Below the pieces are notes generated by a model. It had not been told where the DNA came from, did no database searches, and saw only the letters and a list, made by a program, of their open reading frames with translations. Of a DNA stretch of 12,715 nucleotides, positions 1-12,465 are shown in pieces. The stretch comes from a virus (Monodnaviria; Loebvirae; Hofneiviricota; Faserviricetes; Tubulavirales; Inoviridae): the IMG/VR virus record IMGVR_UViG_2565956711_000001; one strand, given 5' to 3'. Positions within the stretch are counted from its first letter, which is position 1. Each line of letters opens with the position of its first letter. The translations under genes were made by a program, and so were the position numbers.

Positions 1-297
1 TCACCATTCCTCACGCCTTGCCGGTGAATCAAACTCCTTTTCTACAAAATTTGCAGGGTTTGTATAAGTTGAAAGCGGTGCAGAACTGAGCGAAATCTCC
101 ACCCCTAAAATATTTAACACTTTGTATAGACGCTCAAAACTTGCTTTTGAAGGATTTGACTCAAGGCGAGCATAAGTCTGCTGGGTTATACCCAACATGG
201 CAGATAATTCTCTTTGAGTTAATCCTTTTGATTTACGAAAACCAATTAGAAGTGGACGTAACTGGCTAAGAAGTCTAACGGGAAAAATAGTATCCAT
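1..297 (-). CDS. XRE-family HTH DNA-binding protein, HipB-like antitoxin/regulator (98 aa); any cognate toxin gene would lie beyond the left window edge
   Basis: Complete ORF with ATG at 295-297 and TGA at 1-3. The translation has a Cro/CI-type helix-turn-helix (GLTQRELSAMLGITQQTYARLESNP) and ends in ...EEW, like the C-terminal Trp of E. coli HipB (recalled from memory). No clear Shine-Dalgarno sequence. Confidence 0.55.
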   Translation of the reverse strand: MDTIFPVRLLSQLRPLLIGFRKSKGLTQRELSAMLGITQQTYARLESNPSKASFERLYKVLNILGVEISLSSAPLSTYTNPANFVEKEFDSPARREEW

Positions 298-413
298 AAG
301 TAGGTGGCCATGTCGATTACTTCATAATAAATTCACTCCTCGTAAGAAACAGCCTGTAAGGTGTCTTATTACTTTACAGCTTACAAGGTGTAAGGGTGAA
401 CTCGTTGTATTAA

Positions 414-608
414 CTAATACTGCTCAAATTTTAAAGGTTGCATCTCGCGCTGGCTGGGATTATATTTATTAAGGACTAGCATATAGTGGTGTACGCTGTT
501 ATCCTCTTTGTAATGAGGCTTATCAGTGTGTGAAGGGAGAGGGCGGACTCTGCTTTGCCCTCTCTCTTTCATGGACTTATTTAACTTTAAATGTTTTTTA
601 AAAGTCAT
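414..608 (-). CDS. Small basic hypothetical protein (64 aa), possibly translationally coupled to the upstream gene
   Basis: Its ATG (606-608) overlaps the TGA (605-607) of the 186-aa ORF in an ATGA arrangement. AT-rich; no recognisable motif; could be spurious. Confidence 0.3.
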   Translation of the reverse strand: MTFKKHLKLNKSMKERGQSRVRPLPSHTDKPHYKEDNSVHHYMLVLNKYNPSQREMQPLKFEQY

Positions 609-1165
609 TGCCTTATTGCAATGGTTTTATTAAAAATCCCAATCAATGTGTTTATTTTTTCATTTATCTTAATTTGCTTTTTCTCTTGCTCGAGAGAAAG
701 TTTTCTGAATTCATTTTCCCTGCTCGGCACGGCAATTATCAACTCTTCATAAATCTCCTTTGCTCCTGATACTTTTTCCAACTCGCTGCTGTATTTTTCG
801 ATAAGAGTTCTTATTTGAATATTTACATTTCTGTATTCATGACTGGTAGCACTTAAAACAAGTTGACTGGAATTTTTTTTGGGTGCCTCAATTAACTCTA
901 CGCTTTTCTTTACGACATTGAATTCAGATGTGACTGAGTATACATATTGATACGCGCCTGATTTTCTGACTTTACTCAATAATCCTTTTCTAACTAAACA
1001 CTGAATTTGGTTATAAGCAAAAGCTTTTGCCTTAAAATAACTTTTCGGAAGTGAAAATCGCTCGATAAGAATTTGAGCCACATCGTTACTGGTGAAGTTA
1101 TCTTTAGCAATATAGATTATTGCGGAAAATATGTACGACTCAGCGTTGGATACTCGACTATTCAT
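605..1165 (-). CDS. Hypothetical protein (186 aa), possible winged-helix N-terminal region plus lysine/glutamate-rich C-terminal coiled coil
   Basis: Uninterrupted 186-codon ORF with ATG at 1163-1165, in a markedly AT-rich stretch compared with its flanks. The C-terminus (EKKQIKINEKINTLIGIF) looks coiled-coil. No clear Shine-Dalgarno sequence. Confidence 0.5.
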   Translation of the reverse strand: MNSRVSNAESYIFSAIIYIAKDNFTSNDVAQILIERFSLPKSYFKAKAFAYNQIQCLVRKGLLSKVRKSGAYQYVYSVTSEFNVVKKSVELIEAPKKNSSQLVLSATSHEYRNVNIQIRTLIEKYSSELEKVSGAKEIYEELIIAVPSRENEFRKLSLEQEKKQIKINEKINTLIGIFNKTIAIRQ

Positions 1166-1186
1166 ATGACTAAAACAAGGCAGTTA

Positions 1187-1236
1187 ACTTAGGATTGCTA
1201 AGTATACAACAATGGCAGATACTTAGACAATCTAAG
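1187..1236. promoter_or_regulatory. Divergent promoter region with two palindromic candidate operators (ACTTAG-N5-CTAAGT at 1187..1203; CTTAGA-N3-TCTAAG at 1222..1236)
   Basis: Both inverted repeats were read directly from the sequence. They lie between the divergent starts at 1165 (minus) and 1263 (plus). Confidence 0.4.
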
Positions 1237-1262
1237 CATTCGAGGCCAATGAAGATGAATCA

Positions 1263-1595
1263 GTGTCTGAAAAAAATCCGATACCAGAAAGACTTAAGGA
1301 AGCGAGAAGCAGGGCGGGTTTATCACAGCGCTCATTGGGCCTCCTTGTTGGGTTTGATCCCGCTTCGGCTAGCAGTCGTATGAATCATTATGAGAAAGGG
1401 CGCCATGTCCCCGATATTGATACGCTTCGACGGATGGCGGCAGAGTTAAACGTGCCGTTGAACTACTTTTTTTGTGATGATCAGACCACAGCTGAACTTG
1501 CATTACTCATATCCCGGATGACAGAGGAAGAGCGAAGTAATCTTATCGAAGCACTCAAAAGGCATCCAGGCGAAAAGCATGCTGACAAAAAATGA
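1263..1595 (+). CDS. XRE-family (Cro/CI-type) helix-turn-helix transcriptional regulator (110 aa)
   Basis: The translation contains LKEARSRAGLSQRSLGLLVGF...MAAELNVPLNYFF, a typical HTH_XRE fold signature. The only in-frame start is GTG at 1263, preceded by a weak purine-rich stretch; TGA at 1593-1595. GC content is higher than in the neighbouring AT-rich genes. Confidence 0.7.
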   Translation: MSEKNPIPERLKEARSRAGLSQRSLGLLVGFDPASASSRMNHYEKGRHVPDIDTLRRMAAELNVPLNYFFCDDQTTAELALLISRMTEEERSNLIEALKRHPGEKHADKK

Positions 1596-1799
1596 TATTA
1601 CATATAAAGCGACTGAACTTTTTGAAGGTAACGAAAGTGTAGCATTACACTGATGCAATGAACCAAGCAGGACATTACAGTGGGAGACGCCCTCTCAGAT
1701 AACAAACTCAAAAGAGGGAGCCATAAATATATGTTTATCAATACAACCAGCATTCTGCCGACAACCGGGAAGCTGTCGGCTAAATCTTCCATGTCAGAA

Positions 1800-2234
1800 T
1801 TATGACGACTTATGTAGTTCCCGAATCATATGGTTGGCCAACAGGCTTTCCACCGGTATAACCGAATTGATTTTTACCGCTTTGACAATTTCTATCAACG
1901 AAAGGGTATTTTGCGCTAATTGGTCTCGCAATTCACTTACTTCAGCCTGCAACTGCTGGTTTCTGGCCAGTAAAGCCTGACGGGTTTTGCGGTTGACGTA
2001 TTGCTGTTTTTCTTTTGGGCGTAGATTCAATGGGCCAAGTTGCTGGTCAACATAGGCAGCAATTAGGCGTTTACGCTCTAGGCTGCTCAGCGTACTTAAA
2101 CCACCGTTAACGATACCTTTTGCCTTGAGCCTAATATGCAGGGCCTTGGCGGAAATAGGGGACTTGTCAAAGCCTTCAACCAGCATCAGTTGTAATTCGT
2201 GCTCAATCAGTGTGTTCAGTTCCTTGCCGCGCAT
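1800..2234 (-). CDS. Small coiled-coil protein, fourth gene of the tri-recombinase operon (GinD-like or TnpC-like accessory protein)
   Basis: Its ATG at 2232-2234 overlaps the TGA (2234-2236) of the upstream 788-aa recombinase in an ATGA arrangement. The ORF track starts one codon earlier at TTG 2237. Coiled-coil segment NQQLQAEVSELRDQLAQN. No catalytic motif recognised. Confidence 0.6.
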   Translation of the reverse strand: MRGKELNTLIEHELQLMLVEGFDKSPISAKALHIRLKAKGIVNGGLSTLSSLERKRLIAAYVDQQLGPLNLRPKEKQQYVNRKTRQALLARNQQLQAEVSELRDQLAQNTLSLIEIVKAVKINSVIPVESLLANHMIRELHKSS

Positions 2235-4600
2235 CAATCATTCTCCTGCATCAATTGTTGGTATTCAAGTGCAAAAAGCTGGGCCAGTGTACGGACTTTG
2301 CCCTCGGTGATTACTCCACCAGACAACACACTCTCAGCAGCAACCAGTTGTTGAGTCTTGGCACGACGATGCCATTGTGCTTGTATTGCCTCGAGTTGCT
2401 GTAACCGTCGTTCGATGTCGGCCAGTCTGGTCTGGTAATCAGGCTGATGTTGAGTAAGTTGGGTCAACTTCGAATGTGCTTGCTGTAAAGCCTGTTTTTT
2501 GGCAATCAGATTTGGTAGCTCATCTATCCGGCCTGTCAGCGTGAAATGTTCACAAAAGGCAGCACTCTGGCATTTCAGTCGATAAGGACATCCCCAGAGG
2601 TTAACTTCCCGCATACAGGAGCCAAATTTCAGCGGATACAGCACGGCATGTCTTGCCACCATGTCAGAGGCTTGCTCTGGTCCTTCTGCGTCGCGGATTT
2701 CTTCAAAGGCGGCAGCAACATCTTCAAAGAGGCCGTTAGCAAATGACGCCTCGACAAACCTGGCTACATCATCCCGATCGTCAAAAGTATGCAGGTTGGC
2801 TTTGATGGTATTGTCCAAAGTCATGTGTTCCGTGACCGCCAGTTGGCCGGTCCGTTTGACGATATCCAGTGGCGTAGCAATGGAGGACGAAGAGGGCGAG
2901 ACAGTTAGTGCTGTCGAAATCGGCTGCAAGGGCACCAACGAGGCGGCTTTTCGCCGTTCTGCAAGCGCCAGATGTTGATAATGCTGATTCTGCGTGATGT
3001 CCACTCGACCCATCAACATTGCCTGTAAGTGGTCAGAGATATCCGCAATAGCAAGAAAGGTATTGATGTTGTGCCGGGGAATGTGGGTACGCATCCGCGT
3101 CGAGGTGCCATCCTCCTCCAGTAATTGATATTTGCTGAATACTGATCCATCAGGCTCAACGTTGCCTAAGAATTTATTCATAAGTGTGTTAGTGAAGGGT
3201 ATCGGTGTAGCCAGCAAAGCCAGTGTGCGCTTTAATGCCAGCGAACCCTTCTCGTGTAGAAATAGCAGATCCTCGTAGTTAACTTGGTAGCGTTTGCCAT
3301 TTTCCATCCAGGCGTGTGTACAGGGTTCGTTGGCATTCGCCAGACCAAATTCGGTCTTAATGTAATGATTGAGAGCAGTCTTGGAATAATAGATAGATTT
3401 GCTGTTTTTCGGGCCTGGTATTTCTTGAACGGGCAGCACACCTCTTTTGCTAAGGGCTTTGGATGTTTTGTCCCGTTGTCCTGCCCGGCCCCGAAAACTT
3501 GAGGTAGTTTGGGTGATGTACTTCACCACATCGTCCAGTTCGACTCGTTCACCGGGCATGTTGCTGATGGCCTGTGGCAGGTAATCAGCAAAAGATTTTG
3601 CCCGTAGATAGGTAAGATGGCTGCGTATTGGTGCGGTCAACATTTTAACGGTACTGAATATACTCTCGACCAGCGGTACTGCCAGCGGTTCTACCCAATG
3701 CGTTCGCTCCCCAGCACCTTTGACACCAACATAACGGATACCAAGAAAATAATCGGGTAATCCCTTGTCCTGAAATCGTTTGCAGATTGCCGGATCATCA
3801 ATCTGGCGTTTAAACAGGGCATCCTGTCTGAGATTAAACGCTTCAATGGAGCGAAAGCCGGTAATAACCAATAACAACAGGCAATTTAACGCGATTTTCT
3901 CAGCATCACTTTCCACCCGCTGGATTAATGCAACTATGTTCAGAAATCCGCGAATGGTAATCAACGCATCTTCACCATCGGTAGTGGTATCAGACAGCTT
4001 GGCCTGCTGTTTCAGCGCCATGGTTTCCCGGGCTTTGCGGGTCAAGTTGGTTTTGTTGGTATACTTCACATCAGAGTTGTATTGCAGTTTAACCAACGTA
4101 AATGTGAAGTGATTGACCAATTTTTGAAGGCTAACGCACCGCCCTTTATAGTTAGCTGTATTGGGGTCACTAGGAGATGAAACGCTACTGAGAAGATCCA
4201 TCGCTCGTTGAATGACAACTGTGCTCAGGTAAGATGGATGGGTCTGTCCTGTCTCATAAAGCATCGCATGGTACCATCGTTTCAGAATCATCAAAGTTGC
4301 CTTTGCCACCGCTGGCGACATACTCCTATTTCCCTGTCGGTAAACCACTACCAGCATAGCTTTCATGAACTGACTATATTCTTTGTCGATGGGCAGATGT
4401 TCTACAATACCTTTGAATCTGTTCATCTCATCAAAACGTAATGTATTTCTGCCGTTCCCTCGCAACCATCCACTTCCCTGGTTACCACTTACCCAGATAT
4501 GATCATTCCATGTTTGGGCAAAATCAGCAGACAGGTGCTGTTCGAACCATTTTTTTTGCTCTTCAATAAAAGCCTGAAAATGCTCAAAGTGATTTTTCAT
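2234..4600 (-). CDS. Tyrosine site-specific recombinase, large (788 aa), third of three tandem recombinases (GinC-like), with a C-terminal Cys4 and coiled-coil extension
   Basis: Box I-like arginine in VITGFRSIE. Box II-like HIPRHNINTFLA ... LMGRVDITQNQHY gives the R-H-R-Y catalytic pattern. C-terminal cluster CMREVNLWGCPYRLKCQSAAFC followed by a Q/L-rich coiled coil. ATG at 4598-4600 is preceded by AGGTGA; the start overlaps the upstream gene by 17 nt. Confidence 0.8.
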   Translation of the reverse strand: MKNHFEHFQAFIEEQKKWFEQHLSADFAQTWNDHIWVSGNQGSGWLRGNGRNTLRFDEMNRFKGIVEHLPIDKEYSQFMKAMLVVVYRQGNRSMSPAVAKATLMILKRWYHAMLYETGQTHPSYLSTVVIQRAMDLLSSVSSPSDPNTANYKGRCVSLQKLVNHFTFTLVKLQYNSDVKYTNKTNLTRKARETMALKQQAKLSDTTTDGEDALITIRGFLNIVALIQRVESDAEKIALNCLLLLVITGFRSIEAFNLRQDALFKRQIDDPAICKRFQDKGLPDYFLGIRYVGVKGAGERTHWVEPLAVPLVESIFSTVKMLTAPIRSHLTYLRAKSFADYLPQAISNMPGERVELDDVVKYITQTTSSFRGRAGQRDKTSKALSKRGVLPVQEIPGPKNSKSIYYSKTALNHYIKTEFGLANANEPCTHAWMENGKRYQVNYEDLLFLHEKGSLALKRTLALLATPIPFTNTLMNKFLGNVEPDGSVFSKYQLLEEDGTSTRMRTHIPRHNINTFLAIADISDHLQAMLMGRVDITQNQHYQHLALAERRKAASLVPLQPISTALTVSPSSSSIATPLDIVKRTGQLAVTEHMTLDNTIKANLHTFDDRDDVARFVEASFANGLFEDVAAAFEEIRDAEGPEQASDMVARHAVLYPLKFGSCMREVNLWGCPYRLKCQSAAFCEHFTLTGRIDELPNLIAKKQALQQAHSKLTQLTQHQPDYQTRLADIERRLQQLEAIQAQWHRRAKTQQLVAAESVLSGGVITEGKVRTLAQLFALEYQQLMQEND

Positions 4601-6149
4601 TGGACTTCACCTGTTCCTGATGAAAACGGCAGCGGGCGATAACAGACTCAATTTCAAACTGTGTGGTTTCATGGATTAAAATGAGCGGATTTCGGGAATT
4701 ACCTACACCGTCTGAAATAGCGATTAGTTCATCGACTTCTTTTTTGACGCATTCAAGTAGAGCCTGATGTTCACCATCCGTAAAAGGGCGATAATACAGA
4801 CAGCCGTAACAAGAACGCACTTCGCTGAAAGGGCATGTACTACTGTTCCTGGAGCAACCACCAATTTTATCATGCAACTCGTCACCAACGAGTCCCACCA
4901 CTGGATGGCCTTTCCAATGTGCTGAGTCGACCAGTTCCCCAGTGAGCATCATAGCCACCATATTTTGCCAAACGGGATTCGACCCAAGCGCTTTAGCACG
5001 GATCAAGGCCAACGCGGGAGTTGCCATAATGTAGTATTTAGCTACGGCAAGAGAGGTGTGCCCCAGTACATGTGCTATCTCTTCAGCGCTAGCACCTTGC
5101 ATCGCCAAAGAGTGCCCAACATTGTGGCGTAAATCAGTGGGTGTAATTGTGGGCAATGCAGCTTCGCCACATGCTACGGCGGCTTGATATTCAGGAGGAC
5201 AGAAATTTAGGATTGCCTGATTAATTGCCTGAGACACATAATGCGGAGCTGAAACGCTGAAATCGAATAGTTTATCTTCGGGGTTTTTCTTATATCTCAC
5301 GGTATAGTTCATAATTAACTCCCCAATTTCTGGGGGGATCGCCAGAAATAACCGCTCTGTCGTCACTCGTCTTTGTTTAGCATATGGTAAAAAAACACTG
5401 TATCGAATCAGACCAGATTCCTGATTTCGTGTATCGATACGAACATCTTTGACCGCCAGCCTAGCGAGTTGTACTGGGCGTGCACCCGTTACATAAGCCA
5501 ACCCAAGGATAGCTGCATTGCGCACTTCGCTGTGACTGAAACTTTTGCCATCGCGTAACAACGAAGCCATTTCAAACAGTCCATTGCAAATCATGTTTTT
5601 TTCAAGAGGGTCAAGAATATTATCGATTTCTTGGTAACCCCCCCAATGTTCGAGATACGGTCGAGGGACGAACTCAAGATCATCGTAATCTTCAAGATTG
5701 AAACCTGGGAATGTTTCAGCACAAAGTATTTTTAATCCGAATAACACGGAATAAAAAGTAGCATTATCAATATCCTCTTTTTCGATAAATAATCGGAGCG
5801 TACTAAGCGAAAACCCACCATGTTCTCGACAATATGAAATGATATTCCTCCAATCAAGGTGCAACGCTGGAAGTTTGGTTGGAAATCTCGTCGATGCATA
5901 TTTGAAACAGATATACTTGTTTAATTTATTTGAGATATAATCTTGATTGAAAACAAGATATCGCCGACTGCCTGAATAATCGAAAGTCCATTTATTTCCT
6001 TTGTTAACAATATATTTATCATCAAACTCCATTGCCGTTTTTAGATAAATTCGATCAGGAATATCGAGTTCAAAGATAGCCTTAGCTAAATCAGGAGGGT
6101 AAACTGAGTTCCCTTCGTCAGATTTTAATGCATTATCAAATGATGTCAT
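4584..6149 (-). CDS. Tyrosine site-specific recombinase (521 aa), second of three tandem recombinases (GinB-like)
   Basis: Box I LGLAYVTGARPVQLARL. Box II TDLRHNVGHSLAMQGASAEEIAHVLGHTSLAVAKYY matches the H-x-x-R ... LGH ... Y pattern. C-terminal Cys cluster CSRNSSTCPFSEVRSCYGC. ATG at 6147-6149 overlaps the upstream gene by 14 nt. Confidence 0.8.
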   Translation of the reverse strand: MTSFDNALKSDEGNSVYPPDLAKAIFELDIPDRIYLKTAMEFDDKYIVNKGNKWTFDYSGSRRYLVFNQDYISNKLNKYICFKYASTRFPTKLPALHLDWRNIISYCREHGGFSLSTLRLFIEKEDIDNATFYSVLFGLKILCAETFPGFNLEDYDDLEFVPRPYLEHWGGYQEIDNILDPLEKNMICNGLFEMASLLRDGKSFSHSEVRNAAILGLAYVTGARPVQLARLAVKDVRIDTRNQESGLIRYSVFLPYAKQRRVTTERLFLAIPPEIGELIMNYTVRYKKNPEDKLFDFSVSAPHYVSQAINQAILNFCPPEYQAAVACGEAALPTITPTDLRHNVGHSLAMQGASAEEIAHVLGHTSLAVAKYYIMATPALALIRAKALGSNPVWQNMVAMMLTGELVDSAHWKGHPVVGLVGDELHDKIGGCSRNSSTCPFSEVRSCYGCLYYRPFTDGEHQALLECVKKEVDELIAISDGVGNSRNPLILIHETTQFEIESVIARCRFHQEQVKSNEKSL

Positions 6150-7530
6150 CGTTATATCTATCCATTATAGTATCTAACGTATTATGTAGCGCTGCATTGT
6201 CTTGAATAATTCGTTGGACATTGGCAGCATTAGCCTGCTCAGACAGGAAACGTTTTGCATATAGATCAGGCATTTGACTTGTCGGACTCCATCCCCCCAT
6301 CAGTCGTAGTTCATCTTTAGCTTCTTCCATTATCCCTGAGAGGGAAGGGACTTCAGCAATAAAGTGTGTTTTATTTTGCTGGCTTTTCAAATATTTTAAA
6401 TGCCATATTTTTTGCAATGTCAAAAAGGCCCAAGTATGTCGGGTTGTATGCGGAGTCAATCGTTGCAACGAGTCAGAGTACAACGGTGATTTGTACTCTG
6501 GATATTGGTTAGTGAAGACCTGATCTATTTTCGAAAAAATAGAATGAACTGATGTGTAGGACAAAGGCTTCGCTGACTGTTGACTCGATGTAAAGATGAA
6601 ATCGTGTTTATCAGTTTTTGGTCGAAGCTTTGCTATATAAATGCTTAAAAAAATATAATCCTGCTTATCGAGCTCCAACACACGATTAGCCCATGCATTT
6701 TTGAGAGATGGCGCATTCTTTCTTGGTTCGTATGCCTCGTCGACAGTTGTCACAATCAAACTAAACTTATCACCTTTTAAATTAGGTTTAATTGAGCTGC
6801 ACTCTAACAACAATAGCTCACCTGTTCGTAAACCATAATTTAACAACAGACGAATAATCAAAAAATTGCGGAACTGAAGATGCCCGGAAGGGAAAGGATT
6901 TAGCGGGTTATGCTTTTGGGCAGAAGAGGGGGTTATTATTCCATACAGGCTGAGCACCATTGCCCCAGACAAACTCTGAAATCCTTGGCTGCTGTGACTA
7001 TGTTGCGAAAATTTGTTTGATGTAAGCGTTCGATAATTCTCCCGGCAAAGCTGTAAACGGGTGTGTAAACGCGAAGCCAAAAGTGATAATGCTTTGGGAG
7101 AGTCATCCCGGTATGCAGGTGATATGTAGGTGTTAATCAAAAAAGAAATGAAATGGATCACAGCACGAACTCTAACTGTATGAGTTAAGCTATTGGCTTT
7201 TGTGACTCTCGTTAAAGACAACACATTTGACTGGACGTTGTGGCCATTTTCTAGATACATCCAAAATGCGGGCATTTCACCGACAGCAATGTCTGGATTG
7301 TGGTCAGATGAATAGAAGCTGTAGCAAAACGAGACACCATACTTTTGCCTCCAGAATTCGTAAAAAAACTTCACAGATTGAAGTGAAGCTGACTGTGTGG
7401 ACAATGAGCGGAAAGCCAAATGGTCAATATGGTACCTAAGGGGATACAGCAACGGCAGAGAGGTTTCCAAGTCCATCAGGATCCATCGCCTTTTACGGCC
7501 TGAGATAACCAACTGCTTTAGTGAATACAC
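6136..7530 (-). CDS. Tyrosine site-specific recombinase (464 aa), first of three tandem recombinases (GinA-like)
   Basis: C-terminal LTPHTTRHTWAFL ... LMGGWSPTSQMPDLYAKRF matches the H-x-x-R ... Y catalytic motifs of the integrase family. GTG start at 7528-7530 is preceded by GAGGT about 7 nt upstream. First gene of the operon, reading away from dif. Confidence 0.8.
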   Translation of the reverse strand: MYSLKQLVISGRKRRWILMDLETSLPLLYPLRYHIDHLAFRSLSTQSASLQSVKFFYEFWRQKYGVSFCYSFYSSDHNPDIAVGEMPAFWMYLENGHNVQSNVLSLTRVTKANSLTHTVRVRAVIHFISFLINTYISPAYRDDSPKALSLLASRLHTRLQLCRENYRTLTSNKFSQHSHSSQGFQSLSGAMVLSLYGIITPSSAQKHNPLNPFPSGHLQFRNFLIIRLLLNYGLRTGELLLLECSSIKPNLKGDKFSLIVTTVDEAYEPRKNAPSLKNAWANRVLELDKQDYIFLSIYIAKLRPKTDKHDFIFTSSQQSAKPLSYTSVHSIFSKIDQVFTNQYPEYKSPLYSDSLQRLTPHTTRHTWAFLTLQKIWHLKYLKSQQNKTHFIAEVPSLSGIMEEAKDELRLMGGWSPTSQMPDLYAKRFLSEQANAANVQRIIQDNAALHNTLDTIMDRYNDDII

Positions 7531-7673
7531 AATATTTACCTCAAAATTATCATGGATATGAAGAGAATGTACTCTGTACCTAATGCAAGAAACGAGAGGG
7601 AGATCAGAAATCCTAACGTATTGATTTATCAGTTAGTGGGAGTGTCATATGAACTTATTTACCACAGTAGGTG

Positions 7674-7701
7674 ATTTAACATAATATACATTATGCGCAC
7701 C
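7674..7701 (-). other. dif: dif chromosome dimer resolution site (XerC/XerD target), exact 28-bp match to the E. coli dif sequence as recalled
   Basis: The plus strand reads ATTTAACATAATATACATTATGCGCACC, the reverse complement of GGTGCGCATAA-TGTATA-TTATGTTAAAT (XerC arm, central region, XerD arm). Confidence 0.85.
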
Positions 7702-7986: not shown

Positions 7987-9249
7987 TCACCGCGCGCGCT
8001 CCTCGTGGGAACTCGGTGCGTGCGCGGCGCTGGCGCGCCTGACTTTTTTCGCCTGTAACACGACAAGAATATCCGTCTTGTTCTTCTCGTCAGATGAACT
8101 GGTGAGCCAGCCTTTTGGCAGAAAGCTGAACCCGGTATCGGCGTTTGTGACCTTCGATTCAGCCAGGCCACCCAGCAGAATAATATCCCCGTCAGCCGCT
8201 GATACCTCCGTATTCACCTCGCGCTTAATCAGCGTCGGGCTGTTATTCACGCCCGTATCCGTCTTCGCAAAGCTGGAAAGCTGCTGCTTAATCACAAGGT
8301 CAATATTGTCAGTCCGGATTTGCGGTTTCACGTCGAGGATAACGCCACTAGAGCGATATTCAATCGACTGGATCGGCCTGTTGTCGGCGTAGCTCACCTG
8401 ACCCAGCACCGGAACCTCGTTACCGACTGAAAACGTGGCAGATGCGCCATCCTTCACCCTGAGCCGCGGGGAACTGACGACATGAAAACGACTGTCCGTC
8501 CTGAAAAGCTCATACAGCGCATCAAGAGAGCCTGTATTCACCCGGATAAAGTTATCAAAACCGCCAGACGCGCCAATCTGTATATTCAGCTTGCCGGAAA
8601 GCAGCTTCGCCGCCAGTGCCAGCCCGGAACCGTTACGCTCACTGGTCTGAACCTCAAACACGTAAGCTGCGACAATCACTTCTTCAGAGGCAGTATCAAT
8701 CAGCGGTAAAAGCGTCTGCAACCGCTTAATCTCTGACTTCCGGCCATAATAAACCAGCACATCCCCGGTACGGTTCATAAAGTCCGATGCCGTACCCGCT
8801 ACGGCCGCTTCTGGCGATATCTGCCCGGACGGTAACGAGTTACGCTGACTGTTAAACTGCCCGGTAAACTGTCCGGCCAGAATGTCAGACAGATACGCCA
8901 CGGAACGGAAGCGAGGCCGATAAACAAAGGTCTCCTGCGGCGGCACATACACTTTCGGCGTGAACGGCGCCACGTAGTCAATGCCCTGTTTGTTATAAAT
9001 CGCAATGTTCATATTGCCGAGATAGCGCTTAATAAATGCCCGTTCATCGATATCCGGCGTGATACGGAACGTCACCACCTTATCGGATTTGGCAAGCTCC
9101 GGGTCAAGCATAAACGGCTTATCGAACACCTGAACGTAAATCATGTTCAGCGCCTGCGGCAGCGGAACAGCGTTGAGCTCCAGACTGACGCCCTTCGCCA
9201 TAACCAGCCCCGGAACCAGTAAAAAAAGTAAACCTGTTATCAGCTTCAT
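7987..9249 (-). CDS. Filamentous phage pIV-like outer-membrane secretin (420 aa)
   Basis: N-terminal signal peptide (MKLITGLLFLLVPGLVMA). C-terminal secretin-like segment (VVSSPRLRVKDGASATFSVGNEVPVLG ... GDIILLGGL). Its ATG overlaps the Zot/pI stop in an ATGA arrangement at 9246-9249, and it sits immediately downstream of the pI-like gene as in Ff phages. Confidence 0.8.
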   Translation of the reverse strand: MKLITGLLFLLVPGLVMAKGVSLELNAVPLPQALNMIYVQVFDKPFMLDPELAKSDKVVTFRITPDIDERAFIKRYLGNMNIAIYNKQGIDYVAPFTPKVYVPPQETFVYRPRFRSVAYLSDILAGQFTGQFNSQRNSLPSGQISPEAAVAGTASDFMNRTGDVLVYYGRKSEIKRLQTLLPLIDTASEEVIVAAYVFEVQTSERNGSGLALAAKLLSGKLNIQIGASGGFDNFIRVNTGSLDALYELFRTDSRFHVVSSPRLRVKDGASATFSVGNEVPVLGQVSYADNRPIQSIEYRSSGVILDVKPQIRTDNIDLVIKQQLSSFAKTDTGVNNSPTLIKREVNTEVSAADGDIILLGGLAESKVTNADTGFSFLPKGWLTSSSDEKNKTDILVVLQAKKVRRASAAHAPSSHEERAR

Positions 9250-10280
9250 CGTATCGCCCCTGAATAAACCGTCACCGTTTCGCCGTCGATTTCACCCGTC
9301 ATCATCATGCCGTCAAAGCTGAACTGCGAAGCCGGCTCTATACGCAATCTGCCTGACGTGTCTGCAACAACAACCCATGCCTGACCATCGCGTTTAAGCC
9401 GTCCGGCAAGTCGCCATTTGTCCGACACAACGGGCTTAGCTGGCGCGGCAGGTACAAAAGACGCTGAATTATTTGCGGCGGGTAAATCTTTAGTCTGCTG
9501 TTCAGGCTCTGAATTACCGTTTGACGTGAAAAACCAGAACAGATAAAAAATGGCAATTACCGCCAGAATCAGTAACCCGACAGCTTTAAACCACAACATT
9601 TTAGAACTGAAAATATTCTGACGTTTATCGGTGACAAGTTCCCTTCCCTGCCCGTTCTCATGGGATTTATATAGGGGGAATATCGCCTTGTCATATTTAT
9701 TCTGATAACTGTTCGTCAGATTCGACTTAAACAGTTTGATACCCGTAAATACGTCCACACGGTAGCGGTTATGCAGACCCAGCGCCACATGCTTACTCAT
9801 GCGATACGTTGTTTCCACCCGGTCTTTAATGAATCGCGGAAGGTTGGCAACAGACTGATTCATAACCACTAAATCACAGGTTACGCCCGTTTTTTCATCG
9901 GCAAAATGGCGATGTTCTGCAATGAAAGAGCGATGATTTGCAGGAATCCCTTTATCGTTCTCCCATATGCGCCATGCTTCATCAATACAGATTAAATCCC
10001 CCGGACGGCAGAACGTATCATCCGCAATGCCTGAATCCGTTTTGTAGGGAAAGAAATTATCGTTCTGAACGTCTTCATTCTGAACAAGTAAAATTTCACC
10101 AAGTGATTCCCTGTCTGCCTTTTTAATATCAACGCAGTAATCATAAATACTTTGCGTGGCAAGGCCGTAAATATTACTGACAATGCGACGCCCAGCGATA
10201 CAGGCGGGAATAATGACGCTTGCCACCACTTCGTAAGATTTACCGCTTCCGGGAATGCCCACATACGCAGAAATAGCCAT
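9246..10280 (-). CDS. Zot/pI-family filamentous phage assembly ATPase (344 aa)
   Basis: Walker A motif GIPGSGKS near the N-terminus, Walker B-like LICIDEAW, and a single predicted transmembrane helix (AVGLLILAVIAIFYLFWFF) separating the cytoplasmic and periplasmic parts. This is the architecture of Ff gene I and Zot. Confidence 0.85.
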   Translation of the reverse strand: MAISAYVGIPGSGKSYEVVASVIIPACIAGRRIVSNIYGLATQSIYDYCVDIKKADRESLGEILLVQNEDVQNDNFFPYKTDSGIADDTFCRPGDLICIDEAWRIWENDKGIPANHRSFIAEHRHFADEKTGVTCDLVVMNQSVANLPRFIKDRVETTYRMSKHVALGLHNRYRVDVFTGIKLFKSNLTNSYQNKYDKAIFPLYKSHENGQGRELVTDKRQNIFSSKMLWFKAVGLLILAVIAIFYLFWFFTSNGNSEPEQQTKDLPAANNSASFVPAAPAKPVVSDKWRLAGRLKRDGQAWVVVADTSGRLRIEPASQFSFDGMMMTGEIDGETVTVYSGAIR

Positions 10281-10283
10281 AAA

Positions 10284-10571
10284 TTAACCAATCAAAGGAA
10301 TGCGACGAATAATAAAGCGCGTTAACAATGCTGAAAACATCAGTTTAATCCCTTCCGTGACCATAAACAGATTCACGAAATACCATACGCTATCAGGTAG
10401 TGAGGAAAACAACCCGGCAATATCAACAGATTTTGGCAACAGTGACGCCAGAACCGGAACAAACGCCTGTACGACAAAGTACAGGCCAAAAAACAGAATA
10501 AATTTGACAACCACCGTTCGCAGCACAAAACCCAGCGCCACGTTAAAGGCTGAAACCAGAATACCAAACAT
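10284..10571 (-). CDS. Filamentous phage pVI-like minor coat / membrane protein (95 aa)
   Basis: Small, very hydrophobic protein placed between pIII-like and pI-like genes. Strong Shine-Dalgarno sequence GGAGG about 5 nt upstream of ATG at 10569-10571. Confidence 0.6.
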   Translation of the reverse strand: MFGILVSAFNVALGFVLRTVVVKFILFFGLYFVVQAFVPVLASLLPKSVDIAGLFSSLPDSVWYFVNLFMVTEGIKLMFSALLTRFIIRRIPLIG

Positions 10572-10581
10572 AACGCCTCCG

Positions 10582-12465
10582 TCACGCAGTCAGAATGATA
10601 CGCAGCGAAATAATGCCCCAGATAAGCAGGAATACCGCTTTCAGAAGTGGCCTGATTTTTTCCAGAAGCTCGCAGTGAGAATCAATGGAATATTTATTGT
10701 CCCAGAGTTCGAACGACCATACCGGACACTGAACATCCTTCGATGAAATACTCAGGTTTTTAATGTCCGGCATTAATTCTGTAATTGGCTTGAGAATTTC
10801 CTCACCTGTAGGCGGTTTTTCAAGTTCCGGCGATTTAATGCCGGGGTCTTCGCCTAAATCAACAGAAGTATCGGTATCTGTGCCTGTACCAGGGTGTACA
10901 CCTGTATCCGTTCCCGCACCGGGTCTGGCATTAACCCACGACTGAGGAACGACAACCGGACTATAAAGCAAGCCCTTATCAAGTTTTACGCCAACAGCAT
11001 TAGCCGCAGCCGTCAGTTCAGCCGCCGTAAAAGGTTTATCAAGCGGTATCCCCTGATATCCTTCCTGAACAACAGTCTGACCTGCAAGGCCATTAATAAG
11101 ATTAACCAGCGCAGCCGGGTTTAACTGTTCCTCCGGCTTGAAATCTATATTATCAATAACCTCGCCATTAATTACCTGAGGTAAATTTGATGTATCAAAT
11201 TCTGTATTAAAAAATATCTGGTCTTTAACATCCTGAACATCATTCGTCGTTTTATACACGGCCTTCTCAGGGTGGCAAATACTTTTCCACTGCGTTTTGG
11301 GATTATCAGCCGTACTGCCCGGCGCAGGTACTTTCTCGCTTTTACATAAATCCCATGAGTTTTCAAGCGTAACCGTTGTTGTTCCAACAGATAAAACCAC
11401 AGTTACAATCGATGAATATCCACCAAAATAAGGATTCGGCTTTTCATACTGAAAGTCTTTAACGGAAACCGAATAAACCTTAAAATTTCTTGGCATCCTG
11501 ATATGTAAGTTATTGTCGTCAGACGCCTCATGATAAGTCACATTGGAATGAGAATAACCATTAATCGACTTATAAAGCGCAATCATTACCGGATTATCAC
11601 TGACAAGTACAGCATCGCCCTTTGCATCCCTGATATCAGTCGAATAAGGATATTTAGTACCCTTAACTGACACACGATATACATCATTCGGTAATGGCTG
11701 GCTTATCGGCGGTGGTGCATCAATATTGTAATAGGTTGGCGCAATCTGAACAGGTTTAACCTGATGATTATAAGGGCTTATCGAGTCCTGAATATTCTTC
11801 GCAGAAAAGCCAGTAGCATCAGAGGGCAAATAAACAGCAACAGGGCTTTTAGGTGAAGGTGCAACAGAAGAAGTAACAGTAGCGCCATTGGACAAATTAA
11901 GTAAATAAGTTCCATCATCCTGTTTTATTCCACTTGTAATATATTCAACAGCTTTTGCGCCCTGCTTTAAAGCAAGGTCAGCAACGGAAATAACACCCGC
12001 AGCCTGCCCCAGCAATCCCCATGTTGTCTGTCCGGCAGCCATCATATTACTGCCAAAACTTGAAATACCCGTGGATATCGAATCGTCAATTGTATGCTTC
12101 GCAAGGCCATAAGCAGCCGCGAAAACTGACGTTCCGGTGCAAAGCTGAGGATTACCCACTTTCTCGCCACACATGCGGATTGAATCAAAAACGTCAGGAC
12201 GTTCGCGTATAACCTCCGCAGCGACAGCGATACCCGCGCCCATACCGAGAGAACTGGCACCCGTTGCGAATACACGCCCCGCAGATTGAGAAACAACCTG
12301 AGCTTCACGGGTTTCAACCATTTGCTGAATTACACGTCCAAATCCGTCTGCTGTTACTGCATCAGCATGTACACCGGATGAAACCAGTAAAGACAATATA
12401 GTAATACCTAACTTTCCAGACCCTGAATGACCGCCCAGGCGCATAAAAGCCCCCATAAAAAACAC
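10582..12465 (-). CDS. Filamentous phage pIII-like adsorption / minor coat protein (627 aa by ORF track; true start probably the ATG at 12442-12444)
   Basis: Signal peptide (MRLGGHSGSGKLGITILSLLVSSGVHA), a G/T/D/P-rich linker (PGAGTDTGVHPGTGTDTDTSVDLGEDPG) and a C-terminal hydrophobic anchor (LLKAVFLLIWGIISLRIILTA). Sits between pVIII and pVI. The ORF track start at 12465 is GTG; the ATG at 12442-12444 is preceded by a GGGGG purine run. Confidence 0.65.
   Translation of the reverse strand: MFFMGAFMRLGGHSGSGKLGITILSLLVSSGVHADAVTADGFGRVIQQMVETREAQVVSQSAGRVFATGASSLGMGAGIAVAAEVIRERPDVFDSIRMCGEKVGNPQLCTGTSVFAAAYGLAKHTIDDSISTGISSFGSNMMAAGQTTWGLLGQAAGVISVADLALKQGAKAVEYITSGIKQDDGTYLLNLSNGATVTSSVAPSPKSPVAVYLPSDATGFSAKNIQDSISPYNHQVKPVQIAPTYYNIDAPPPISQPLPNDVYRVSVKGTKYPYSTDIRDAKGDAVLVSDNPVMIALYKSINGYSHSNVTYHEASDDNNLHIRMPRNFKVYSVSVKDFQYEKPNPYFGGYSSIVTVVLSVGTTTVTLENSWDLCKSEKVPAPGSTADNPKTQWKSICHPEKAVYKTTNDVQDVKDQIFFNTEFDTSNLPQVINGEVIDNIDFKPEEQLNPAALVNLINGLAGQTVVQEGYQGIPLDKPFTAAELTAAANAVGVKLDKGLLYSPVVVPQSWVNARPGAGTDTGVHPGTGTDTDTSVDLGEDPGIKSPELEKPPTGEEILKPITELMPDIKNLSISSKDVQCPVWSFELWDNKYSIDSHCELLEKIRPLLKAVFLLIWGIISLRIILTA

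Follow-up and report, generated by a model that had tools for sequence, protein, structure and literature searches.

What is encoded in the AT-rich patch at positions 414–1262 of IMG/VR record IMGVR_UViG_2565956711_000001, a 12,715-nucleotide stretch of DNA classified among the Inoviridae (hereafter the window), and does it serve regulation or defense? An initial annotation, made from the sequence alone, had read the patch as two coupled genes of 186 and 64 codons, matching no family and divergent from a Cro/CI-type XRE regulator, and had considered both a regulatory switch and an accessory cargo. Our computational follow-up places the patch in a genomic island with three integrases (GInt, Tn6571 family), at the point where its integration genes give way to cargo. 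The best overall explanation, to which we give a probability of about 0.6, is that the 186-codon gene (p186) encodes a VspR-family regulator that forms a switch on the GInt together with XRE110, a divergently encoded helix-turn-helix (HTH) protein of the C.Csp231I controller class. A regulatory switch is also the earlier suggestion that fits the evidence best. The features concerned are the following.

605–1165, minus strand: p186, the 186-aa gene, very probably a divergent VspR-family regulator
414–608, minus strand: 64-aa open reading frame (ORF), arisen by chance and interrupted in most related loci
437–604, minus strand: conserved noncoding 3′ region of the p186 transcript, from DNA alignment and the limits of blastn homology (437–1720)
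533–568, minus strand: stem-loop, from an inverted repeat, fold z-score, and conservation
1166–1262, no strand: divergent control region of 97 bp, common to p186 and XRE110
1188–1202, no strand: putative operator box CTTAG-GATTG-CTAAG, proximal to p186 and distal to XRE110
1222–1236, no strand: putative operator box CTTAG-ACAAT-CTAAG, proximal to XRE110
1201–1230, minus strand: predicted sigma-70 promoter of p186, from a promoter scan and hexamer invariance
1195–1223, plus strand: possible weak XRE110 promoter, read from the sequence
1263–1595, plus strand: XRE110 (110 aa), C.Csp231I-class controller-type HTH protein, from PDB 3lfp and PADLOC Control_protein

The 186-codon gene and its family

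Judged by its conservation, the 186-codon ORF is a genuine gene under purifying selection. Almost every related locus keeps the frame open, an exception being the metagenome-bin contig L009 with its internal stop, and the ratio of nonsynonymous to synonymous substitution rates (dN/dS) is ~0.2 overall, 0.06–0.12 in the C-terminal helices, and ~0.5 in the linker. About 90 homologs are found in Enterobacteriaceae, with identities down to 53%, conserved N- and C-terminal parts, and a variable linker. On the two points that the initial annotation had named as able to refute its reading, p186 proved to belong to no housekeeping family and to be conserved as an intact ORF, and the 64-codon ORF proved not to be conserved. 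Homologs ~80% identical to p186, with the same XRE gene and operators, also occur on short contigs from a Sutterella metagenome-assembled genome (MAG; L008) and a Bacillota MAG (L009), which are most likely mis-binned enterobacterial or mobile-element contigs.

Both ORFs lie on the minus strand at 605–1165 and 414–608, as first annotated, but they are not two coupled genes: comparison across loci indicates that the 64-codon ORF is a chance frame over the 3′ untranslated region of p186. Only three copies keep the frame (the window, the identical locus L001, and L003), and 8 of 10 comparable copies have it broken. A 96.8%-identical copy on a Klebsiella plasmid has a 1-nt deletion that stops it after six codons, and in six further loci it is interrupted at about codon 9 or 33. 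The DNA beneath the frame is nonetheless conserved, despite indels of 1, 4, and 11 nt. RefSeq leaves the ORF unannotated, and its product has no family match in Pfam, PHROGs, PADLOC, or NCBIfam scans. The ATGA overlap with p186 holds an ATG that is a by-product of the last Gln codon and stop codon of p186 (CA-ATG-A). Because the 64-codon ORF is spurious, the unit is one gene and not a two-gene cassette.

The 3′ region of p186 is conserved as DNA. Homology with GInts bearing other cargo stops at about position 437 (blastn). Approximately 40 nt past the p186 stop codon, the stem-loop has 12-nt arms (11 of 12 positions paired), a 12-nt loop, and a fold z-score of −3.33. Eight loci preserve it, and the most divergent copy does so with two compensatory changes of base pairs. 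A terminator scan found no terminator, and since the stem-loop lacks a U-tract it is not a canonical intrinsic terminator; it is probably a hairpin that forms or stabilizes the 3′ end. An Rfam scan of 250–1850 returned no family above chance.

The base composition of the patch had been described correctly only in part. At 35.2% GC (33.7% in the 186-aa gene, compared with 44.9% for the whole window), positions 414–1262 rank in the lowest 1.4% of 849-nt windows, so the AT-richness stands. The sharp contrast with GC-richer flanks was overstated, as the left flank has 38–40% GC and the junction of the recombinase genes ginB and ginA falls to 36.4%, nearly as AT-rich.

p186 had been thought to match no family, but profile comparisons make it very probably a divergent, full-length branch of the VspR family (PF27213/PF27192) with a DNA-binding fold. 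In direct scans against Pfam, PHROGs, PADLOC, and NCBIfam nothing rose above threshold (IFT57, IMS, and CopY/TcrY at E = 0.013 are noise), and neither p186 nor the 64-aa protein matched a PADLOC-DB v2 defense model at E ≤ 0.1. PF27213 and PF27192 are newer than the Pfam copy used in these scans, and family membership was tested by proxy. An exhaustive profile search of 1.84 billion representatives returned 49 clusters, including a tail of full-length matches of the same length as p186, and hmmsearch with the p186 profile found VspR-annotated proteins at E-values of 1e-7 to 1e-4. One relative from the profile search (P0113) carries both PF27213 (VspR_N) and PF27192 (VspR_C) in precomputed Pfam annotation, a protein 99% identical to p186 carries a PF27213 record, and some relatives are labeled "Transcriptional regulator VspR" by their source databases. 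Aligned with hhalign, the p186 clade and proteins bearing both VspR domains match at 99.0% probability (E = 3e-18; 176/186 columns; ~25% identity). When the VspR-annotated clade was itself used as the query, 53/53 matches bore one or both VspR domains and 52 bore both. Searched with the VspR-family profile, solved structures gave nothing significant.

Structural modeling suggests that p186 is most likely a dimeric winged-helix DNA-binding regulator. An AlphaFold model built from close homologs only was poor in its C-terminal half (pLDDT, the predicted local distance difference test, 69.6; Foldseek E-values all > 0.01); a model from a broader alignment was confident (pLDDT 85). The latter has a winged helix at residues 7–86, a disordered linker at 87–108, and two long antiparallel helices at 99–183, which bears out the winged helix and coiled-coil-like tail proposed by the initial annotation. 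Its top full-length structural matches are PadR-type repressors, and PadR is also the best match for the winged helix alone; AspA and TubR (centromere-binding winged helices) and MukF rank lower. Like Bacillus subtilis PadR, VanR, and AphA (PadR family), the p186 model has an N-terminal winged helix followed by a C-terminal helical dimerization region, but in p186 a disordered linker precedes this region, which takes the form of a long two-helix hairpin. Because p186 has no sequence match to Pfam PadR (E ≤ 0.1), the likeness is one of fold and architecture and not of family membership.

VspR is a regulator on the Vibrio cholerae island VSP-1, and chromatin immunoprecipitation (ChIP) together with mutant transcript levels identifies it as a negative regulator of CBASS, the anti-phage signaling system based on cyclic oligonucleotides (PMC10653837, PMC9674212). 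p186 resembles VspR in length class (170–195 aa), in two-domain architecture, and in residing on a horizontally acquired island beside anti-phage systems; its homolog on the Klebsiella plasmid adjoins a type II CBASS, as VspR does. Unlike VspR, p186 lies on a GInt rather than on VSP-1, and its cargo is variable, so it has no fixed neighboring target operon. "VSPR" in enterobacterial genome papers was set aside, as it denotes the very-short-patch-repair system of PADLOC and not VspR.

XRE110 and the shared control region

XRE110 is, from sequence comparison, a clear homolog of the controller protein C.Csp231I, confirming the divergent Cro/CI-type neighbor. Residues 9–94 match PDB 3lfp (Csp231I C protein) at E = 3.2e-22, and the PADLOC Control_protein profile is matched over positions 2–93 of 101 at E = 1.2e-25. 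Its dN/dS is ~0.1. On the Klebsiella plasmid (L002 16253–16593, MH733011.1), GenBank splits the XRE110 homolog into two small hypothetical ORFs; an intact 110-aa frame with a GTG start, 99% identical to XRE110, is present there.

The control region at 1166–1262 has 96% mean identity over nine loci, compared with a dS of ~0.3–0.46 in the flanking genes, and it holds both matches to CTTAG-N5-CTAAG in the whole window (0.27 expected). These two putative operators are 15 bp each and 34 bp apart, with 19 bp between the boxes. Counted from the start codon of the VspR-like gene, both 15-mers are at positions about −71 and −37, and this register and their sequence, spacers included, are identical in the window and in 18/22 other loci. 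The loci that share them belong to four GInt lineages, to a Tn7-like element of Vibrio (TnsABC), and to a CRISPR-associated transposon (CAST) of type I-F. The operators of C.Csp231I itself are two CTAAG-N5-CTTAG sites that lie upstream of the C.Csp231I gene with 18 bp between them (PMC4321490). XRE110 shares with the C.Csp231I/C.EcoO109I class ("motif 8" C-boxes) two 5-5-5 palindromes upstream of its gene and an unusually long spacing (19 vs. 18 bp), and differs in its half-sites (CTTAG/CTAAG vs. CTAAG/CTTAG).

The boxes coincide with candidate promoter elements on both strands. The predicted p186 promoter (9/12 matches) has a −35 hexamer TTGTCT (1230–1225), an 18-nt spacer, and a −10 hexamer TATACT (1206–1201). 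Its −35 lies within the spacer of the box at 1222–1236, the box at 1188–1202 overlaps the −10/+1 region, and both hexamers are invariant in enterobacterial and marine loci. For XRE110, a candidate promoter with 8/12 matches, under the scan threshold, has −35 TTGCTA (1195–1200, inside the distal box), a 17-nt spacer, and −10 GATACT (1218–1223). By analogy with activator-dependent C-protein promoters (PMC4321490, bioRxiv 10.1101/2020.07.02.184150), it may be a weak mirror image of the p186 promoter.

No further C-box, allowing up to one mismatch, was found in any of the GInt loci examined, including upstream of ginA, and p186 is for this reason apparently the only output of XRE110 within the element. 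Two candidate operators were rejected: a conserved sequence upstream of ginA proved to be a dif site, and a repeat 3′ of XRE110 considered for p186 (CATTACASTG at 1643–1652 and 1673–1682; direct repeat CATTACACTG / CATTACAGTG) occurs at chance frequency (two found, 1.5 expected). Also seen 3′ of XRE110 was a small, partly conserved CCCTCT...AGAGGG hairpin (1689–1718).

A precedent for XRE110 comes from CASTs of the I-F3b type. Petassi et al. reported binding of purified I-F3b Xre to two C.Csp231I-like motifs upstream of the Xre gene, of which the distal one activates and the proximal one represses, and repression of tniQ-cas through a third motif; they suggested that "zygotic induction" occurs when a new host is entered (bioRxiv 10.1101/2020.07.02.184150). 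Like XRE110, the CAST Xre lies at the edge of a mobility operon, belongs to the same Xre class with the same operators, and in the CAST loci examined here has a VspR-like gene as its divergent partner, a neighbor that goes unmentioned in the CAST paper (bioRxiv 10.1101/2020.07.02.184150). In two transposon loci (one Tn7-like, one CAST) the VspR-like protein is ~25% identical to p186 and the XRE protein 55–62% identical to XRE110. A near-copy of the operator, CTAAGTATTCCTAAG, stands 28 bp upstream of tniQ at L015 3676–3690 and L016 4271–4285, which fits the published I-F3b Xre regulon. XRE110 is unlike the controllers of restriction-modification (R-M) systems, as neither a restriction endonuclease gene nor any other gene follows on its strand and it converges on ginD. 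It also faces a second regulator, whereas the C.Csp231I class and the CAST Xre face an R-M gene or tniQ-cas. Like the Xre of I-F3b CASTs, XRE110 is thus a controller-type regulator that has been co-opted, and it is no R-M controller.

Position in the island and possible roles

The module formed by p186, XRE110, and the control region adjoins four genes that match the GInt integration operon:

1800–2237, minus strand: ginD-like small gene, 145 aa, matching ginD in position and size and always found with the recombinase trio
2234–4600, minus strand: ginC-like recombinase, 788 aa, weak integrase-domain match
4584–6149, minus strand: ginB-like tyrosine recombinase, 521 aa, Pfam Phage_integrase, E = 1.1e-10
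6136–7530, minus strand: ginA-like tyrosine recombinase, 464 aa, Pfam Phage_integrase, E = 4.1e-7

GInts consist of an operon, ginABCD, encoding three tyrosine recombinases (GinC reportedly without the first catalytic Arg) and a small fourth protein, with variable cargo after it (PMC5385486), and Tn6571-family GInts at Escherichia coli hotspots carry Gabija, CBASS, AVAST, and other defense systems (PMC10121019). The window genes (464, 521, 788, and 145 aa) form a same-strand run with overlapping or abutting ends, with integrase domains in two and a weak match in the third, which accords with that report on GinC. As in GInt/Tn6571, three consecutive recombinase genes and a small fourth are followed, right after ginD, by cargo that varies by copy. 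In published accounts everything 3′ of ginD is cargo, with no conserved regulator pair; the XRE/VspR-like module found here behaves instead as backbone.

Conservation and position both indicate that p186, XRE110, and the control region travel as one backbone unit and are not cargo. The unit (437–1720) is 80–95% identical between islands whose gin proteins are only ~30–40% identical. It directly follows ginD in at least four gin lineages and follows tnsC or cas6 in transposons, with the XRE gene converging on the mobility operon and the VspR-like gene co-directional with it. The separate horizontal origin proposed earlier for the patch holds insofar as the region is mobile; an origin apart from the XRE gene does not, given this 80–95% identical unit and its presence also in Tn7-like elements.

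The cargo beside the module differs from copy to copy:

L001, E. coli EC09: Gabija (GajA E = 4.5e-240, GajB E = 3e-194) and Avs2
L002, Klebsiella plasmid: complete type II CBASS, ~1 kb from the module
L004: PDC-M01B
L010: Gabija and PDC-S50
L011: type IV restriction enzyme
L023/L024: arsenic resistance

The last pair (L023 2823–9522, L024 361–5676) represents a GInt lineage with gin proteins of 466, 516, 787, and 144 aa, a module of XRE109 and a 173-aa VspR-like protein, and the identical operator pair. Its cargo genes encode ArsD, ArsA, ArsC, ArsB, ArsR, and a ParA/CbiA-like ATPase and are not defensive. An Enterobacter GInt lineage (L011–L014, ~2485–4772; p186 homolog 54–56% identical) adjoins vsr and a truncated 114-aa DNA-cytosine methylase, which suggests insertion in dcm rather than beside dif.

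Marine gammaproteobacteria have a longer form of the unit, in which a superfamily 2 (SF2)/ResIII helicase gene overlaps the stop codon of the VspR-like gene (L015 9948–11387, L019 8579–9961, L020 8555–9931, L021 8534–9934). The helicases are 47–58% identical between loci and have a weak PADLOC PbeA match, and the marine unit of XRE, VspR-like, and helicase genes lies beside type I R-M systems and genes for Tn7-like transposition. The helicase is missing from the enterobacterial GInt form. A derivation of the 64-aa region from this helicase was considered and rejected, as there is no similarity between them.

This arrangement could work as follows. The two C-boxes would be interleaved with opposed, overlapping promoters, a stronger one for p186 and a weaker one for XRE110. 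In a cell without XRE110, for example when the island has newly arrived, RNA polymerase would use the p186 promoter and the VspR-like protein would be made. As XRE110 built up it would occupy the boxes, turning p186 off and regulating its own gene, as has been demonstrated for C.Csp231I and the I-F3b Xre, the analogy on which this step draws. If p186 acts as its homolog VspR does, for which ChIP supports repression of the VSP-1 CBASS operon, it would then bind DNA and repress targets. Because the module tracks mobility genes whatever the cargo, these targets would more likely concern establishment or mobility of the element, or a general hold, than one defense system. That the two genes form a self-contained regulatory switch in the GInt backbone, with XRE110 controlling p186, we consider about evenly balanced.

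Several points weigh against a switch of this kind. Its timing on arrival is drawn from analogy alone. The promoter scan as a whole did no better than shuffled sequence (4 vs. 4.1), and because its count is at chance the p186 promoter call rests on position and conservation. The half-sites are one base off the crystallized C.Csp231I operator, and we infer their binding by XRE110; no p186 binding motif was found. The VspR label comes from Pfam and source-database names and from profile–profile similarity to annotated relatives, and not from V. cholerae VspR (VC0177) itself. Most members of the enterobacterial clade lack a precomputed VspR Pfam match, and V. cholerae VspR was absent among the matches listed in two large searches (in one, the best 120 of 199) and in cluster look-ups. 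One study found CBASS-dependent phenotypes unaffected by VspR, and VspR's regulation "may be more complex" (PMC10653837, PMC9674212). Finally, the nearest cargo genes point toward the module, and cargo differs between copies with near-identical p186, which makes cargo-specific repression as on VSP-1 hard to reconcile with these loci.

One broader possibility, which we regard as speculative and rather doubtful, is that the XRE and VspR-like pair is a portable "arrival switch" of unrelated elements, namely several GInt lineages, Tn7-like elements (I-F3b CASTs among them), and possibly VSP-1. When such an element enters a naive cell, a timed burst of the VspR-like protein would follow that licenses integration or silences newly arrived, potentially self-toxic cargo until the element is established. 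If true, the logic of R-M controller proteins would be generalized to whole defense islands.

A different role for p186, as a dedicated repressor of the adjacent defense cargo that silences toxic abortive-infection systems until needed, is unlikely. It would suit the family relationship with VspR, the usually defensive nature of the neighboring cargo (Gabija and Avs2 in L001; the Klebsiella type II CBASS mirrors VSP-1), and the reports of GInts as defense carriers (PMC10121019). However, near-identical modules stand beside unrelated cargo, arsenic resistance included, no motif is common to module and cargo, the cargo genes face the module, and in Tn7-like relatives the module follows transposition genes.

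It is very unlikely that XRE110 is an antitoxin and p186 a toxic DNA-binding protein, the two stabilizing the island as an addiction pair. The genes are divergent and not co-transcribed, p186 matches no toxin family and has the fold of an ordinary dimeric repressor, and V. cholerae VspR mutants and wild type are both viable (PMC10653837). These points outweigh, in our judgment, the frequency of XRE-type antitoxins on mobile elements, the apparently tight repression of p186 by XRE110, and the indication in two reports that imported C.Csp231I can kill E. coli via off-target regulation (PMC11014345, PMC9638921).

p186 as a structural DNA-binding protein of the excised island (centromere-like, partition, or nucleoid-associated) is highly improbable. 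The AspA, TubR, and MukF matches would accord with such a role, as would the AT-richness of the gene and its surroundings and the ParA/CbiA-like ATPase that follows in one relative, but these fold matches rank below full-length matches to PadR-type repressors, neither the window nor most loci have a partition ATPase, and the sole characterized family member is a transcriptional repressor (PMC10653837).

Least probable of all is an uncharacterized two-gene accessory or defense cassette, the cargo suggested by the initial annotation: its location in a defense-carrying island and the coupling of a VspR-like gene to a downstream SF2/ResIII helicase in marine relatives favor it, but the 64-aa frame is unconserved, neither protein has a PADLOC, Pfam, PHROG, or NCBIfam match, p186 has a DNA-binding fold without an enzymatic, toxic, or membrane domain, the window holds no helicase remnant, and the module also accompanies the nondefensive arsenic-resistance cargo.

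Island edge, distribution, and significance

The remaining features of the window delimit the island and identify the DNA beyond it:

7674–7701, minus strand: dif site, exact 28-bp E. coli copy (GGTGCGCATAATGTATATTATGTTAAAT), the outer island edge, where homology with GInt loci stops
7987–12465, minus strand: filamentous-phage (inovirus-like) gene set beyond dif
7987–9249, minus strand: secretin
9246–10280, minus strand: Zot-like ATPase
1–297, minus strand: XRE98, a HipB-like HTH gene (98 aa) 3′ of p186, Pfam HTH_3, E = 3.6e-15

The gin-proximal edge of the island maps at dif, and the far end falls outside the window. A dif sequence lies 150–250 bp upstream of ginA also in L004 (3481–3505), L006 (3053–3077), L007 (3468–3492), and L023 (2653–2677); the copy in L001 is at 27674–27698, and the Klebsiella plasmid copy has the dif variant GTACGCATAATGTACGTTATGTTAAAT. 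Since dif adjoins GInts whose gin genes share only ~30% identity, this GInt group sits at or targets dif. Filamentous phages characteristically integrate at dif as well. At this GInt edge in E. coli EC09 an ISNCY transposase takes the place of the prophage, so the filamentous prophage is an independent dif-associated insertion. Its gene set also includes a 95-aa minor coat protein (phrog_974) and a 627-aa adsorption-type protein (phrog_3942). The GInt paper does not mention dif (PMC5385486).

Window bases 1–7,700 are 100% identical to the chromosomal locus of E. coli EC09 (L001), and bases 1–2300 are matched in 327/5,426 complete E. coli genomes (~6%). Other copies are on plasmids of Klebsiella, Salmonella, Raoultella, and others, and a phage collection held no similar DNA. 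XRE98 is 85–96% identical in most related loci and missing from L004–L006; it has no adjacent HipA-like partner, and the next gene in EC09 is the convergent gajB.

GInt islands, C-protein-type Xre regulators on mobile elements, and the VspR family were already known. Relative to the literature searched, two results are new: the assignment of a widespread enterobacterial "hypothetical protein" to the VspR family, and a controller-type XRE/VspR-like pair with invariant operators as a backbone module common to GInts and Tn7-like elements. The practical value is modest and consists of better annotation, in which the "hypothetical protein" of the module gains a family and a testable role and the "cargo" of the island starts with a conserved regulatory module. 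How E. coli and its relatives exchange anti-phage defense by way of GInts is poorly understood, and nothing has been published on GInt regulation. The Xre class is known to control RNA-guided CAST transposition, and its pairing with a VspR-like protein suggests an overlooked second component of that circuit. VspR, hitherto studied only in V. cholerae, gains a wider context.

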